Sequence record: OZ346228.1
Length of the DNA stretch: 64,000 bases
DNA from: a phage
Reading direction: 5' to 3' (one strand)
Positions 57,233 through 64,000 of this stretch are shown piece after piece (within the stretch, counting starts at the first letter, position 1; each line of letters starts with the position of its first letter). The translations under genes were made by a program, and so were the position numbers. Below the pieces are notes generated by a model. That model searched no databases, was not told the DNA's origin, and saw nothing but the letters and a program-made list of their open reading frames with translations.

Positions 57233-57733
57233 GTGAAAATTAAGATCTTTGCTATTATTTTGAGCGCACTTTTATCGCTGCCTGTTGTTGCAGCACCAAA
57301 ACAAAAAGTATATCATACTTGCAAGCCCTCAGATACTAAGGAAAACATTCTGGCATGCAATATCTACAGGGAGGCTAGAGGGGATGGCACGATGGGTATG
57401 CTGGCATCAGGGTTTGCCACACTAAACAGGAAATCTCACCCCAAATACCCAGACACTATAAGAAAGATTGTCTACCAACCTAACCAGTTTTCGTGGACAA
57501 ACCACGGCAAAACTTTTAAGGTGACAGAAAAAGATTCATGGGATCACGCTAAAAGTCTTGCAAAGATGCTTCTAAAGGTCTATAATAACAACCATGTTGC
57601 ATACATGGCTATGGACATAACAGGTGGAGCAACACACTACCATACAACCAAAGTACGACCGAAATGGGCAAAAAAGATGCAGAGGACAGCTCAATTCGGG
57701 AGTCATATCTACTACAAGGAGCGCAATAAATGA
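57233..57733 (+). CDS. SleB/CwlJ-family cell wall hydrolase with signal peptide (candidate endolysin)
   Basis: 166 aa, GTG start; N-terminal signal-like MKIKIFAIILSALLSLPVVAAP; motifs NIYREARGDG, LNRKSHPKYPDTIRKIVYQPNQFSW. Confidence 0.7.
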   Translation: MKIKIFAIILSALLSLPVVAAPKQKVYHTCKPSDTKENILACNIYREARGDGTMGMLASGFATLNRKSHPKYPDTIRKIVYQPNQFSWTNHGKTFKVTEKDSWDHAKSLAKMLLKVYNNNHVAYMAMDITGGATHYHTTKVRPKWAKKMQRTAQFGSHIYYKERNK

Positions 57734-58275
57734 TTGTAAACAGTAATGAAACTAAAGCAGTACTAACCGGAAATATGGAGGTCACCAGGGGCTCAATTTC
57801 TCTGAACAAAGAGACTTTTGGGCTAATCATTAAAGGGATTTACGAAGATAAGGTGCTGGCAAGCTGCCGTGAACCAATCTTCAATGCTGTGGACTCCCAT
57901 GTTGAGTCTGGACGGGGTGATGTACCGATCATCATTCACTCTCCTACAGACCTTGAACCATACTTCTTTGTGCAGGACGTTGGATTGGGCATGTCGGAAG
58001 AGATGGTCCGCAACACTTTCATGAACCTCGGGGAGTCAACCAAGCGCAACAGCAACGCTCTGGTAGGTAATAAAGGTGTAGGTTCAAAGGCCCCGTTCAG
58101 CATGGTGGACACTTTCGATGTGATCAGTGTGCCATACCAACACAACAGTGCTAAGTGCCGTGCATGCCGCTACGAAATAGTAGCAGCACCGGAATCACGC
58201 AAAGATGGCGATCCGATTGAATACGTAGTTGACCGTGATGGTAACATCATCGACATTATCTACGAGGAGGCGTAA
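57730..58275 (+). CDS. GHKL-type ATPase-like domain protein (putative)
   Basis: 181 aa; Bergerat-fold-like motifs EPIFNAVD (N box), DVGLGM (G1 box), GNKGVGSKA (G2 box). Confidence 0.4.
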   Translation: MIVNSNETKAVLTGNMEVTRGSISLNKETFGLIIKGIYEDKVLASCREPIFNAVDSHVESGRGDVPIIIHSPTDLEPYFFVQDVGLGMSEEMVRNTFMNLGESTKRNSNALVGNKGVGSKAPFSMVDTFDVISVPYQHNSAKCRACRYEIVAAPESRKDGDPIEYVVDRDGNIIDIIYEEA

Positions 58276-59645: not shown

Positions 59646-59983
59646 GTTTGTGGAGAAATATCGTTAACTACGTGTGTGGCAATCCGACTCCTGAAGAGAA
59701 GGATGTTGTGATTCACGATTTTACTAAAAGATCTCGTGAAAAAGATCTACTGCTAACAAAGGTGACTGATAAAGATCCTGCAGTAGGGGACTGGGCAGGT
59801 TTTGCGTTTACATCGGACAAATACACCTTTAACAAAGGTGACTACCTTGTTGTGGATTTTAACGAAGACATTGAGGGTGCTGAACCTTACTATCAAACCC
59901 TTATTGTTGCAGGGTGTGTTAATCTCTCTGCAGGTATGCACAGTTTGATTCTTTTTGAGCTTGACTCTGAAGACCTTGAGTAG
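59642..59983 (+). CDS. hypothetical protein
   Basis: 113-aa ORF overlapping helicase stop. Confidence 0.4.
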   Translation: MSLWRNIVNYVCGNPTPEEKDVVIHDFTKRSREKDLLLTKVTDKDPAVGDWAGFAFTSDKYTFNKGDYLVVDFNEDIEGAEPYYQTLIVAGCVNLSAGMHSLILFELDSEDLE

Positions 59984-60044
59984 TAAGATGTGAGTATAAA
60001 GGGGAGGCACTCCTCCCCACAAAAACTAAGGAGAGCACCAAACG

Positions 60045-61370
60045 ATGAGTAAAACCAAATTAGAACTAACCTGGATAGGTAAAAACGAGCGCAAAAAGTT
60101 AGAGCCGCACATTTTGTTAGAAGATTCTAGCAAGTCTTACCACAGCCAGAAAGTGACCGAAAACGATATTTTTGATAATAAACTGATTTTTGGAGATAAC
60201 TTATTAGCATTGAAGGCGCTAGAGCAAGAGTATGCAGGCAAAGTGAAGTGTGTTTACATAGACCCGCCATTCAATACCGGGAGGGCTTTTGAGCACTACG
60301 ATGATAGCCTGGAGCATTCCATTTGGCTGGGCTTAATGAGGGATAGGTTAGAAATAATTCGTAATCTTCTAAGTGATGATGGGGTAATATTCGTTCACTT
60401 AGATGATTGCGAAATGGCGTATTTAAAAGTTTTGATGGACGAGATTTTTGGTCGTGCAAATCAGTTAAATACCATATCGATGACCACAAATTCCCCTTCG
60501 GGATTTAAGGCAACAGGAGCCACAGTTTTCTCCACAGCAAACTTTTTGCTTGTATATGCAAAAGATCGCACCCAGAAACCGCTTAATAAAATCTATATAC
60601 CTAAAGGGTACGATACAGGATATAACAAATACCTATTAAACCCGGATGACCATTATAAAAATTGGACGTGGTGCAGTATTGCCGATGCGTTTGCAAAGGC
60701 CAATGGCTATAAGGATGCAAAAGAAGCCAAGAAAAAACTGCCTGACACATTCGATGATGAATTAGCACAATTCGCAATTGATAATGCAGAACGTGTATTT
60801 CAATCTGTTGCAATTGGTGGTGGTGCTAAAATAAAGAGAAAAGAAACTATCGAGAAGTCAAAGAAAGATAGGGATAAGGTTTATGTACATCCAAATGAGG
60901 ATGTTGAAGGATTTTATATCGCAAATGGTAGGCAAATGGTCTTTTACTCCAATAGGCTTTTGGAAATTGACGGTGAGATGCAACCTGCGGAACTAATAAC
61001 TGATGTTTGGACAGACATTAGTTGGAATGGAATAGCAAATGAAGGCGGCGTTAGTTTCAAAAATGGGAAAAAACCAGAAGCGCTTTTGAAGCGGATTTTC
61101 GAAATGTGTACGCGAGAAGGCGATTTGGTATTGGATTCATTCGGTGGTTCGGGAACTACTGCTGCTGTAGCTCACAAGATGAAAAGACGTTGGATCTCAA
61201 TCGAGCTAGGTGATCATTGTCATACCCATATTATTCCGCGCTTGGAAAAAGTGATCGATGGCGAAGATCAAGGTGGTATTTCTAAGTCTGTAAGCTGGCA
61301 AGGTGGTGGTGGCTTCCGTTATTACAAACTCACCCCGGCCTTAGTTGCGAAAGATAAGTCTGATCAATAA
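60045..61370 (+). CDS. DNA methyltransferase (beta-class, probable N6-adenine)
   Basis: 441 aa; motif IV DPPF (VYIDPPFNTG) precedes motif I FGGSGTT, the order typical of beta-class amino-methyltransferases. Confidence 0.75.
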   Translation: MSKTKLELTWIGKNERKKLEPHILLEDSSKSYHSQKVTENDIFDNKLIFGDNLLALKALEQEYAGKVKCVYIDPPFNTGRAFEHYDDSLEHSIWLGLMRDRLEIIRNLLSDDGVIFVHLDDCEMAYLKVLMDEIFGRANQLNTISMTTNSPSGFKATGATVFSTANFLLVYAKDRTQKPLNKIYIPKGYDTGYNKYLLNPDDHYKNWTWCSIADAFAKANGYKDAKEAKKKLPDTFDDELAQFAIDNAERVFQSVAIGGGAKIKRKETIEKSKKDRDKVYVHPNEDVEGFYIANGRQMVFYSNRLLEIDGEMQPAELITDVWTDISWNGIANEGGVSFKNGKKPEALLKRIFEMCTREGDLVLDSFGGSGTTAAVAHKMKRRWISIELGDHCHTHIIPRLEKVIDGEDQGGISKSVSWQGGGGFRYYKLTPALVAKDKSDQ

Positions 61371-61383
61371 AGAGTACAATCAA

Positions 61384-61689
61384 ATGATGAAACGTTATAA
61401 ACCATACACTTTTGAAATCGATTTCGAACTTGACGATATGTTCACTGTGGAAGCTCAGGCAGTTGTCCAGTTGCCAGACCCAGAGTGTCGTGATTCTGAT
61501 GTTGACTATTATGGATTTAGACAGATCACTGATGTGCATGTTTACCACAACGGTGAAGAGGTGGACTTCCACCAATTGCCAAACGATATGCGCCACTCAA
61601 TTTACAAACGTGCAGCCCGTGAACTAGAGTCCTATCTGGATGCAGCGACGACAGCAGCTGCATTTGCTGAAGAAGTGGGAGGTTTCTGA
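61384..61689 (+). CDS. hypothetical protein
   Basis: ATG 61384 within reported ORF 61345..61689 that otherwise overlaps the methyltransferase. Confidence 0.4.
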   Translation: MMKRYKPYTFEIDFELDDMFTVEAQAVVQLPDPECRDSDVDYYGFRQITDVHVYHNGEEVDFHQLPNDMRHSIYKRAARELESYLDAATTAAAFAEEVGGF

Positions 61690-62084
61690 TGATTACAGGT
61701 GTGAAGATTATCCAATACCACTTAACCAAATTGGAAGATGCTGAAAAAGAGCTTGCAGAAGTTCTAAATAGTGGATATACTTTGCTATCATGCGCCTGCT
61801 CAGACACCTACGCTGTGTGGACACTTATCCGGAAGGAGGAGCCTGCAGGGATCTTGGTGCCAAACCCTAAGATTATCAGTGAAGTGGATGACTGCTCTCA
61901 GGACGGCCTGTCAGAAGACTGGGAAGCATGGGAAGGTGGTGAAAACCCTGCACCAGGTAAGTGGGTAAAATACAAACTACGTAGCGGTGCACAGCACGCT
62001 GGATACTCTGATAACCTGGACTGGAGTCATTCTTCACCGGAATCATTGGTAAGTGCATATGATATCGTTGCTTTTCAGGAATAA
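61689..62084 (+). CDS. hypothetical protein
   Basis: 131 aa; RBS GGAGG. Confidence 0.4.
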   Translation: MITGVKIIQYHLTKLEDAEKELAEVLNSGYTLLSCACSDTYAVWTLIRKEEPAGILVPNPKIISEVDDCSQDGLSEDWEAWEGGENPAPGKWVKYKLRSGAQHAGYSDNLDWSHSSPESLVSAYDIVAFQE

Positions 62085-62096
62085 GGAGAGAGTGTT

Positions 62097-62579
62097 ATGT
62101 CAGATTTTATGTGGAAAGTAGGTTATGCCTCTCCTGAAATGTGCGAGGCTTGCTTTGTAAAAATAGGCCGCGAGGATATTGACAAAGTGATCTTTAAGTT
62201 TCGTGATGTATCTGTGATCGGCAACCGAGTGCTTAAGCACTTAAAGAATCTGAAGCTCACCAAAAAGAAGTTCTTCGGACTTTTCGAAGAGAAAGTTGAT
62301 GCTTGGACCCATTGCATTCAGGAAGCTAAATCTCACTACAGTGCTATCGTTACCCCAGAACGGGTAGCCAAGATGGAAGGATTCATCAACAGCACAGAGT
62401 TTGAGTGCCTAAAGGCTGCCCTTAATAGTTATCCAAAGTGCCTCAAACACCTTGACAAGTATGTAGAAAAGGATGGGGAAATGTATCTCACCCTGGACGC
62501 ATATTATGAGATGCAAGAAATTTTAAATTTAGATTTGACATTGGTATCCACCGAGTATACAATAGGTATCCGGGTTTAA
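62097..62579 (+). CDS. hypothetical protein
   Basis: 160 aa; RBS AAGGAGAG; followed by terminator. Confidence 0.4.
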   Translation: MSDFMWKVGYASPEMCEACFVKIGREDIDKVIFKFRDVSVIGNRVLKHLKNLKLTKKKFFGLFEEKVDAWTHCIQEAKSHYSAIVTPERVAKMEGFINSTEFECLKAALNSYPKCLKHLDKYVEKDGEMYLTLDAYYEMQEILNLDLTLVSTEYTIGIRV

Positions 62580-62585
62580 CACTAG

Positions 62586-62612
62586 GCCCTGCCCGAAAGG
62601 GTGGGGCTTTTT
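62586..62612 (+). terminator. rho-independent terminator
   Basis: GCCCTGCCC-GAAA-GGGTGGGGC then TTTTT; overlaps probable start region of the C5-MTase-like gene. Confidence 0.6.
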
Positions 62613-62630
62613 GCATTAGGAGACAGCAAA

Positions 62631-63395
62631 TTGAAATTTATCTACAAAGAACACTACCACAAAGGTGTTGTGTGGAGTCTATTTGACGGGTCTGGTGGTG
62701 CAGTCATTGACTGGGCAAAAGCTGGGTACCTGTGCCTGTGCTTTAATGCAGAAGGCGCTGATCACGGCAGTTATGCAGAGGTTATAACCGATCATCCCAA
62801 CATTCACTATGTGGATTATTGGATTGACCCATGGTTCCCTCAGGAAACTTTTTGCATGTACCCAGCTCCAGACTTTATTCTTGCATTTCCTCCGTGCACG
62901 CATTTAGCGGTATCAGGTGCTGCACATTTTAAGAAAAAGCTGGCTAAGGACCCTCTGATCCAAATTAATGCCGTAAAGGATGCTCGGGTTGCGGAAGAGC
63001 TGGGAGAGATTTACGATTGCCCGTGGCATGTAGAGAATCCTGTGGGTGTTATGTCCACACTGTGGCGCAAACCTGATTACCGTTTTCATCCTTCTGACTA
63101 TGGTGGGTATTTACCGGAGGATGATGTAAACCCTTGGTTTCCTGAATTTATAGCTCCACGTGATGCCTATCCAAAAATAACTTGCGGCTGGATAGGTAAT
63201 GGATTTATAATCCCGCCCACAAAACCTGTCCCGCAAATAGTTGACGCGGTTAGCGGGTATTCTATGCAACACGCCAAGCTGGGTGGAAAGAGTGCAAGAA
63301 CGAAGATGATTCGAAGTCTCACACCACGTGGCTGGGCAAAAGCCGTATTCTTAGCAAACGAGCCTGTAGTAAGGAGCAGAATTAATGGGAAGTAA
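62631..63395 (+). CDS. C5-cytosine methyltransferase-like protein (minimal, putative)
   Basis: Probable TTG start 62631 after RBS AGGAG; motifs FDGSGG (motif I-like), FPPCTHLAVSGA (PC motif IV-like), HVENPVG (ENV motif VI-like); about 254 aa, short for this family. Confidence 0.4.
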   Translation: MKFIYKEHYHKGVVWSLFDGSGGAVIDWAKAGYLCLCFNAEGADHGSYAEVITDHPNIHYVDYWIDPWFPQETFCMYPAPDFILAFPPCTHLAVSGAAHFKKKLAKDPLIQINAVKDARVAEELGEIYDCPWHVENPVGVMSTLWRKPDYRFHPSDYGGYLPEDDVNPWFPEFIAPRDAYPKITCGWIGNGFIIPPTKPVPQIVDAVSGYSMQHAKLGGKSARTKMIRSLTPRGWAKAVFLANEPVVRSRINGK

Positions 63396-64000
63396 ATTTA
63401 TGGCATCTGCATACAACCGTTTCGGTGAGCCAAACCCGAAAGCAACTAAGTATAAAAGTGGGGGGAGTGTGAAACGAGACTATCGTGATGAAAAAGAAGT
63501 TGAAACTGTAGAGACTGTTTTAGAAAATACTAAAATTGTCCCTGTCCCACAACAAAATATCGGTCTGATGGCTGCACAATATTTTGGTGTGCGATCAGCA
63601 TTGTCCCAAGAAGACGGTGTGACAGTCACTGCAACATATTTCCCATATTACGACCGCTACGGAAATCTGTCTGGTTTCAAAAAGCGTGACTGGACTATTC
63701 CTAAAGAGCAAAGGGGCCATTTCTCCGTTGTTGGCATCGTAAAGGCCAACTCCCAGATGTTTGGTCAAAAGCTGTGTGCATCTTCCAACAACCGTAAGCA
63801 GATTAATGTTTGTGAGGGAGAAGGTGATGTTATTGCAGCATGGCAGGCTGCATATCAAATACAAGTAAAAGGGATTCTCACCAACGCTAAAGCCCCGGCA
63901 AAGGTGAAACAGTGGGCTAAAGAGGTCCAGGACGGGATCGATGCAGTTATCAACGGGGGTGATTTGGCAGGAAAACCCTGCCTGCCTTTTGTTGGAATTA
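63385..64000 (+). CDS. DNA primase, TOPRIM-type (partial, 3' end outside window)
   Basis: ORF runs off window end; TOPRIM-like acidic motif INVCEGEGDVIAAWQA; follows helicase and methyltransferase genes. Confidence 0.5.
   Translation, partial: MGSKFMASAYNRFGEPNPKATKYKSGGSVKRDYRDEKEVETVETVLENTKIVPVPQQNIGLMAAQYFGVRSALSQEDGVTVTATYFPYYDRYGNLSGFKKRDWTIPKEQRGHFSVVGIVKANSQMFGQKLCASSNNRKQINVCEGEGDVIAAWQAAYQIQVKGILTNAKAPAKVKQWAKEVQDGIDAVINGGDLAGKPCLPFVGI

Follow-up and report, generated by a model that had tools for sequence, protein, structure and literature searches.

The phage genome analysed here probably carries two independent orphan DNA methyltransferase genes in an early/replication block, in which an intrinsic-terminator-like hairpin would serve as a partial attenuator and the marks placed on phage DNA would give narrow protection. 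The window (the whole 64-kb stretch of DNA that was analysed) is the genome sequence of a Vequintavirus (rV5-like) E. coli phage, near-identical to phage naswa; the genus is well sampled, with ~120 near-identical genomes. Both genes, termed ORF1 and ORF2, are present at the coordinates listed below and have the same boundaries in the GenBank records of naswa, WalterGehring and Murica. Both methyltransferase genes, the promoter and the terminator were already listed in the rV5 paper (Kropinski et al. 2013, PMC3606486), where gp235 and gp231 were named from similarity alone, and the BASEL records name ORF2 a 'Dcm-like C5 cytosine methyltransferase'. With both genes annotated since 2013, re-reading them is correct but ordinary. 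What goes beyond the existing annotation is the recognition that ORF2 comes from a strongly conserved family of very wide distribution, apparently uncharacterised, with a minimal C5-methyltransferase fold and an invariable segment at the recognition position, such that its chemistry and target site bear on ~1,500 phage genomes at once. The features of the region are as follows.

60045..61370, + strand: ORF1, 441 aa, predicted orphan type III Mod-like beta-class N6-adenine DNA methyltransferase, orthologue of rV5 gp235
61384..61689, + strand: small ORF, rV5 gp234, 101 aa as annotated; phrog_4240 at 4.7e-33; no Pfam match
61689..62084, + strand: small ORF, rV5 gp233, 131 aa; phrog_11995 at 2.4e-86; no Pfam match
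62097..62579, + strand: small ORF, rV5 gp232, 160 aa; phrog_12900 at 3.2e-112; no Pfam match
62535..62563, + strand: sigma-70-type promoter-like site, TTGACA-17-TACAAT (11/12), upstream of the terminator
62585..62612, + strand: intrinsic-terminator-like hairpin and T5 run, from sequence and folding; rV5 t232
62619..62622, + strand: GGAG ribosome-binding site 8 nt before the TTG, read from sequence; the Murica record also annotates a ribosome-binding site there
62631..63395, + strand: ORF2, 254 aa, TTG start; predicted minimal cytosine-C5 methyltransferase-fold enzyme, orthologue of rV5 gp231
63385..64000, + strand: start of the primase/helicase gene, with an 11-nt overlap with the ORF2 stop, running off the window; from annotation and sequence

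A preliminary description of this DNA had taken ORF1 for a beta-class amino-methyltransferase (DPPF then FGGSGTT), and this is borne out by a match to PF01555 at 3.8e-42 (145.2 bits; cut-off 26.7). Residues 67-393 make up the domain, as aligned to a profile of 221 positions; DPPF lies at residue 73 and FGGSGTT begins at 366, so that motif IV precedes motif I, separated from it by an insert, which is the beta-class order. ORF1 also matches the PADLOC MTase_III profile at 2e-204 (profile positions 2-444 of 575), and its best solved relatives are the type III Mod subunits 6k0w and EcoP15I 4zcf. No Res (helicase-nuclease) gene adjoins ORF1, whose neighbours are a PIF1/Dda-like helicase, the small ORFs and the primase/helicase, and ORF1 is therefore considered an orphan. 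By analogy with every characterised Mod subunit, this shortened type III Mod-like enzyme would be expected to produce N6-methyladenine at a short asymmetric site. The 61384..61689 ORF gives weak matches to two further PHROGs labelled DNA methyltransferase; there is no sign of a TET-like enzyme, a glycosyltransferase or any other hypermodification partner, and none of the three small ORFs that separate the two methyltransferase genes has a Pfam match, all being assigned to PHROGs of unknown function.

ORF2 had likewise been described as C5-methyltransferase-like, and its motifs and predicted fold agree on this. FDGSGG (family consensus LFDx[TS]G) lies at residue 18, PPC at 87-89 and ENP at 135-137. 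Position 39 in motif II is Asn in ORF2 and Asp in 70/74 relatives, the Phe of 'FPPC' is found in 67/74 members, Arg146 of 'WRKP' in 64/74, and Arg228, just before the C-terminal helix, in 72/74; the placement of 'WRKP' and of the family motif 'IRSxTPRG' in motif IX or motif X is ambiguous. The modelled structure of ORF2 has a C5-methyltransferase fold, for which DNMT3A and DNMT3B are the best structural matches, and DNMT3, CmoX, prophage methylases and M.HhaI all score above DNMT2. Failure to match C5-methylase profiles had been put forward as grounds for rejecting ORF2, and ORF2 itself indeed matches no curated C5 profile, including Pfam PF00145; however, that objection is overturned by the predicted fold and by homologues above the Pfam threshold. 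PF00145 is matched by 20/28 family members, and three homologues that are 55-57% identical to ORF2 score 24.7-28.5 bits (cut-off 22), over motifs I-IV only. Against solved structures, a single-sequence search gave nothing significant and a 28-member profile reached only E ~0.4 to DNMT3B and HaeIII, over motifs I-IV, while a 74-member family profile searched against PDB sequences returned no C5 enzymes and only chance matches to dehydrogenases. In HMM-HMM alignment, PPC pairs with the SPPC, and ENP with the ENV, of the cyanophage enzyme SpCmoX; hhalign runs of ORF2 with E. coli Dcm and with an alignment of the CmoX family placed only the N-terminal half with any confidence, and a greedy run aligned motif VI too, leaving the C-terminus at zero confidence. 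Catalysis would probably take the standard course, by attack of Cys89 of the PPC motif on C6 of a flipped cytosine, with Glu135 of ENP protonating N3 and the methyl group passing from SAM to C5.

The probable TTG start of ORF2 (62631), said at the outset to lie just downstream of an intrinsic-terminator-like hairpin, fits the ribosome-binding site, being 8 nt after GGAG (62619-62622), and agrees with homologue starts. It is 19 nt past the hairpin and not inside a terminator, as the heading of that description had it; only the GTG at 62601, where the mechanically called ORF begins, falls in the 3' arm. Homologues speak against GTG 62601 as the start: it would give a 264-aa ORF in which the match to PHROG 757 opens only at residue 10, and an 80%-identical homologue (P0002) begins at the TTG position.

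ORF2 is a member of a large phage and prophage family of enzymes of ~225-260 residues, with relatives in 1481 of 50,697 phage records, or ~3% of the phage genomes deposited, as against 152 records for ORF1. Cys89 and Glu135 are invariant in 74/74 diverse members, which are 31-55% identical to ORF2, and dN/dS is ~0.03, so it is unlikely that the small enzyme is inactive, as had been suggested. ORF1 is under purifying selection as well (dN/dS 0.05-0.10), and both methyltransferases are therefore likely to be functional, as judged from sequence. ORF2 was also said to have no obvious target-recognition domain, which is true insofar as no variable domain is found; there is a stretch of ~75 residues after motif VIII, up to the C-terminal helix, but it is conserved. 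At the target-recognition position (residues 154-200) the mean top-residue frequency is 0.60, compared with 0.61-0.71 in the catalytic motifs; given this similar conservation, the family probably shares one simple specificity and would not have diversified in the manner of restriction-linked methylases. Conservation of the segment at this position is atypical for DNA C5 methylases. Family members are encoded in replication modules and in the nin region of prophages, and they repeatedly adjoin helicases or are fused to them.

The most likely biological role is post-replicative marking of phage DNA that would protect solely against cognate restriction enzymes. The proposal that the two genes together point to restriction evasion is not supported: they are not a conserved pair, ORF1 being missing from relatives that keep ORF2, and the BASEL study found the Vequintavirinae 'exceptionally susceptible' to restriction-modification systems of all restriction types tested. 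This experimental sensitivity calls the usual anti-restriction story into question, and any protection must therefore be narrow. Literature searches found no methylome or biochemical data on the ORF2 family or on Vequintavirus DNA. The 'Dcm-like' label on ORF2 is without basis in specificity; the catalytic Pro-Cys motif of E. coli Dcm (CCWGG, 472 aa) aligns with ORF2, but overall similarity is not significant (hhalign probability 0.4%). At an observed/expected ratio of 0.58, CCWGG is scarcer in the window than expected; this is a weak argument, and not a decisive one, against protection of the site by a phage enzyme. E. coli K-12 MG1655 is McrBC+. Its listing as host in the naswa record argues, again not decisively, against a short purine-C site for ORF2.

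Two other accounts of ORF2 concern its substrate and its product. It is quite unlikely that in vivo the protein, instead of methylating cytosine in DNA, acts on another substrate, e.g. RNA, or has a non-catalytic DNA-binding role beside the replication proteins. DNMT2, which has the same fold, methylates tRNA, and such a role would suit the conserved rather than variable recognition-position segment, the lack of a match to curated C5 DNA methylase profiles, the repeated proximity or fusion of family members to helicases and the restriction sensitivity of the Vequintavirinae. However, an invariant Cys nucleophile and Glu speak for catalysis on pyrimidine C5 and would be needless for a purely structural role, DNMT2 is outscored by the DNA enzymes, and placement in a replication module is typical of phage DNA methylases. 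It is very unlikely that the family consists of carboxymethyltransferases that use host carboxy-SAM (made by CmoA in E. coli) to form 5-carboxymethylcytosine, as CmoX of cyanophage S-B43 does, and the chance is just as slight that a conserved Arg near the cofactor pocket would let many enterobacterial phages with no cmoA of their own place this base at a family-wide shared site. ORF2 does have 'FPPC' and the near-invariant Arg228, it alone in the window is matched in a tblastn search with SpCmoX (E 0.008), and the hosts of the family are mostly gamma-proteobacteria, which make carboxy-SAM. On the other hand, 13 Arthrobacter phage records also carry the ORF2 family, and Arthrobacter hosts are not known to make carboxy-SAM. 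DNMT3A and DNMT3B, the best structural matches, share this Arg-Ser pair, as part of 'GRSW' in motif X, and write 5mC using SAM, so Arg at this motif is not diagnostic; Arg228 as a carboxy-SAM mark was accordingly dropped as the main reading, DNMT3A having 'GRSW' at the same place. CmoX owes its selectivity to an 'SPPC' motif and to Arg350, which stands in place of the Asn of motif X (PMC12783734), but it is ambiguous how Arg228 lines up with Arg350, HMM-HMM alignment puts 'IRS' on motif IX, and ORF2 has FPPC, not SPPC. SpCmoX (Synechococcus phage S-B43; PDB 8yf3; PMC12783734) is a 372 aa DNA cytosine C5-carboxymethyltransferase that matches PF00145 over its full length at 5.9e-53, whereas ORF2 does not, and the SpCmoX gene has cmoA and an amide ligase gene as neighbours. 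Homologues of neither accompany ORF2 in the 64-kb window, where tblastn with SpCmoA and SpCmoY gave nothing better than E 0.7, although host CmoA could substitute.

The promoter-like site sits in the 3' end of the rV5 gp232 orthologue and is followed by the hairpin GCCCTGCCC-GAAA-GGGTGGGGC and TTTTT at 62586-62612, which folds at -22.8 kcal/mol within an 81-nt context and is unique within the window; Table S4 of the rV5 paper lists terminator t232 at -22.3 kcal/mol and a promoter, P231, identical to the window site (PMC3606486). In L008, an 80%-identity relative, the promoter is kept as TTGACA-17-TATGAT amid changed neighbouring synonymous positions, and the hairpin is conserved with a T-to-C change that makes a G-U pair G-C. 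Promoter conservation may partly reflect protein constraint, because the site lies in coding sequence with a conserved peptide. Downstream in the same direction lie the essential primase/helicase, whose start signals (AGGAG at 63372-63376, ATG at 63385) precede the ORF2 TAA (63393-63395), and the DNA polymerase, so read-through of the hairpin must be substantial. ORF2 would be the first gene after the hairpin, and transcripts, including those from the consensus-like promoter just upstream of it, would read through into ORF2, into the primase/helicase, which is coupled to it in translation, and into the DNA polymerase. Since replication-block transcripts must pass it, the hairpin most plausibly acts as a partial attenuator of the entire block, and the TTG start would further dampen translation of ORF2 specifically. 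The initial idea that the terminator hints at low or regulated ORF2 expression thus stands in that hairpin, GGAG and TTG are real, but the terminator is not specific to ORF2, as replication genes follow. It is unlikely that the layout of promoter, hairpin and gene is instead a dedicated switch that sets, through attenuation or antitermination, when ORF2 and the replication genes are expressed, and so is not just a leaky operon-internal terminator. A strong hairpin and T5 run placed ~20 nt after an 11/12 promoter would suit such a device, the whole layout is kept in a relative with diverged flanks, and with essential genes downstream termination must be overcome; but neither a candidate antiterminator nor an alternative RNA fold came to light, the leader fold z-score is only -1.6, the promoter overlaps conserved coding sequence, rV5 operons have many scattered consensus promoters and terminators, and the comparison covers two diverged lineages only.

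Relative to known systems, ORF1 aligns with the type III Mod subunits EcoP15I Mod (4zcf) and Mod 6k0w at 2e-24 and 1e-28, respectively, and has the beta-class motif order common to both, but at 441 aa it is shorter than these subunits (618-644 aa) and lacks the last ~130 profile positions. DNMT3A and DNMT3B have a catalytic domain of roughly the size of ORF2, but are only 13-15% identical to it, with an insert after motif VIII that is unrelated in sequence, and ORF2, in contrast to DNMT3, is a phage protein that stands alone, with neither regulatory domains nor a partner of the DNMT3L type. The closest counterpart is rV5 itself, in which gp235 (adenine-specific methyltransferase, 441 aa) is the ORF1 orthologue and gp231 ('Dcm methylase', 254 aa) the ORF2 orthologue; gene order is alike, the sequences of promoter P231 and terminator t232 are identical, and the window differs from it in nothing of substance.

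The two methyltransferase genes of this Vequintavirus (rV5-like) genome, here ORF1 and ORF2, are set among the following features.

59961-59989: weak promoter-like site (9/12), directly before the next hairpin
59997-60018: GC-rich hairpin GGGGAGGCACTCCTCCCC, just upstream of ORF1
60045-61370, plus strand: ORF1, 441 aa, amino-methyltransferase
61384-61689: 101-aa ORF (rV5 gp234), directly after ORF1
62535-62563: promoter-like site TTGACA-17-TACAAT (11/12), in the 3' end of the upstream ORF, ~20 nt before the next hairpin
62586-62612: hairpin GCCCTGCCC-GAAA-GGGTGGGGC with a T5 run
62619-62622: GGAG, 8 nt ahead of TTG 62631
62631-63395, plus strand: ORF2, 254 aa, small C5-methyltransferase-fold protein

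The boundaries of both coding sequences are confirmed exactly by the ORF list and by three independent GenBank annotations. The C5-methyltransferase-like motifs that the preliminary description saw in ORF2 are borne out, with FDGSGG at residue 18, PPC at 87 and ENP at 135, and an AlphaFold2 model built from the family alignment (mean pLDDT 90.4) has the DNMT3A and DNMT3B catalytic domains as its top Foldseek matches in the PDB (E 3e-6). No Pfam, NCBIfam or PADLOC model matches the protein; PHROG 757 ('DNA methyltransferase') does so at 6.3e-87. More than 3500 homologues of ~225-260 aa were found, and an exhaustive family profile search gave 2039 cluster representatives at E <= 0.001. PF00145 is matched weakly by 20 of 28 close family members, while three homologues (55-57% identity to ORF2) exceed its curated cut-off, over motifs I-IV only. 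The family is located in replication modules, where Vequintavirus and Dhillonvirus members adjoin DnaB-type or DEAD-box helicases; in RB49-like phages it occurs among the early genes, and in lambdoid prophages in the nin region. Some relatives are fused into longer chains, in part with a helicase/UvrB-type N-terminal region (BFVD A0A6J5SE15, 1397 aa; family representatives P0366 and P0380, ~400 aa); others share 4-11 nt with a helicase gene, and the methylase-helicase association recurs.

The suggestion that ORF2 might be inactive fared less well. Cys89 and Glu135 are retained in all of 74 members, which share only 31-55% identity with the window protein, and an 'IRSxTPRG' motif ahead of the last helix is nearly invariant; together with a dN/dS of ~0.03 this is strong evidence against a relic without activity. 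Of the 74, 70 have Asp at position 39, where the window protein has Asn. Residues 154-200, at the position of the target-recognition domain, are conserved to the same degree as the catalytic motifs; this is unusual among DNA C5 methylases and suggests one common, probably simple, specificity for the family.

CmoX is a phage C5-methylase homologue that uses carboxy-SAM, and its motif-X Asn is replaced by Arg350, in an 'SPPC' context (PMC12783734). ORF2 has Arg228 near the Arg350 position and an FPPC motif, so that it too could write carboxymethyl rather than methyl groups, a reading we regard as very improbable. SpCmoX, the carboxymethyltransferase of Synechococcus phage S-B43, was taken from its encoding record (L007:48586-49704) and a family alignment built for comparison; in the HMM-HMM alignment the pairing was correct for motifs I, IV and VI, whereas the C-terminus aligned without confidence and 'IRS' fell on motif IX. 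DNMT3A, which writes 5mC with SAM and heads the structural matches, also has 'GRSW' at motif X, and the Arg is therefore not diagnostic. No cmoA or ligase homologue was found within the 64-kb window.

As for expression of ORF2, its TTG start had been placed at the terminator; it does follow the 62586-62612 hairpin, but does not lie inside it. The sole start codon within the hairpin, GTG 62601, is the mechanical ORF start and finds no support from homologues: the PHROG 757 alignment to the GTG-started longer ORF opens at residue 10 and the N-terminus of an 80%-identical homologue (P0002), 'MDFIYKD', aligns with 'KFIYKE' of ORF2, which supports TTG 62631. In L008, an 80%-identity relative, the start is ATG; the TTG is lineage-specific, and it probably reduces ORF2 translation. 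L008 has diverged flanks and keeps the hairpin (one pair changed from G-U to G-C), the -35 hexamer, a -10 of TATGAT and a ribosome-binding site. The promoter and terminator before ORF2 are already listed for rV5 as P231 and t232 (PMC3606486); rV5 carries a second copy of t232 (t213), absent from the window, where the hairpin is single-copy. The promoter-like site lies upstream, not downstream, of the terminator dividing two gene blocks, and a transcript initiated at this site would run into the hairpin after ~15 nt. At the ORF2 stop codon, ORF2 and the primase/helicase gene (ATG at 63385) share 11 nt, and the DNA polymerase gene comes next. Since transcription must get past the hairpin to reach these essential genes, the hairpin cannot be an off-switch specific to ORF2, and a leaky attenuator for the whole block is more likely.

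ORF1 was correctly recognised as a beta-class amino-methyltransferase, since it matches PF01555 (N6_N4_Mtase) at 3.8e-42 and has DPPF (residue 73) ahead of FGGSGTT (residue 366), the beta-class order. Residues 1-439 match the PADLOC type III methyltransferase model at 2e-204, covering only profile positions 2-444 of 575, and the closest solved structures are type III Mod subunits (6k0w, 1.3e-28; EcoP15I Mod 4zcf, 2.2e-24). To our knowledge all type III Mod enzymes characterised so far produce N6-methyladenine, and we infer the same product for ORF1. A PIF1/Dda-like helicase gene lies 5' and three small ORFs without known function lie 3', with no Res-type gene among these neighbours. ORF1 is an accessory gene: it is missing from L008 and Salmonella phage SSE121, both of which have ORF2 within the same block, and tblastn gave matches in 152 phage records for ORF1 against 1481 for ORF2. 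Its dN/dS is 0.05-0.10 (against WalterGehring and Murica). The 101-aa ORF that follows has weak PHROG matches (2e-5, 0.008) to C-terminal parts of two 'DNA methyltransferase' families and may be a small domain fused to methylases elsewhere. The 59997-60018 hairpin has a terminator score on the minus strand only, yet the neighbouring genes are all plus-strand.

By megablast, 59900-63500 is 100% identical to Escherichia phages naswa (MN850595) and magaca, and 94-99% identical to ~115 further Vequintavirus records. Sixteen MG0656xx records (e.g. H7, H9, H28, H34) that bear the name 'Campylobacter phage' and give C. jejuni as host share 96-98% identity with E. coli Vequintaviruses across the methylase region and are probably mislabelled or contaminant assemblies. 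Window coordinates equal naswa coordinates minus 20276 from ~58133 onward. Relative to naswa the window has a 2653-bp deletion, with its junction near 58132/58133, that joins in frame approximately the first 134 rIIA codons and the last 48 rIIB codons (fused reading frame at 57730-58275); in 120 related phage records no unbroken match crosses the junction, and the deposited relatives thus all have intact rIIA and rIIB. The fusion is reminiscent of the classical T4 rII deletion-fusion mutants. CCWGG (observed/expected 0.58), CTAG (0.55), GTAC (0.58) and GGCC (0.70) are under-represented in the window, GATC is not depleted (0.91), and the CpG dinucleotide stands at 0.62.

Both genes had been taken to point to restriction evasion. 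The BASEL study found Vequintavirinae 'exceptionally susceptible' to restriction-modification systems, effective protection seeming absent, which excludes broad evasion by ORF1 and ORF2; the same study found methylase genes without a simple link to resistance in Drexlerviridae. Narrow cognate protection, or another function of the DNA mark, is possible. The identification of both genes is correct, yet already known at annotation level: Table S3 for rV5 (2013) lists gp231 as a 254-aa 'Dcm methylase' and gp235 as a 441-aa 'methyltransferase (adenine specific)' (PMC3606486). A third methyltransferase of rV5, an adenine enzyme of the Methyltransf_26 type with 272 aa, is the product of gene 100, which lies outside the window (PMC3606486), and the genus therefore has three methylase genes, not two.
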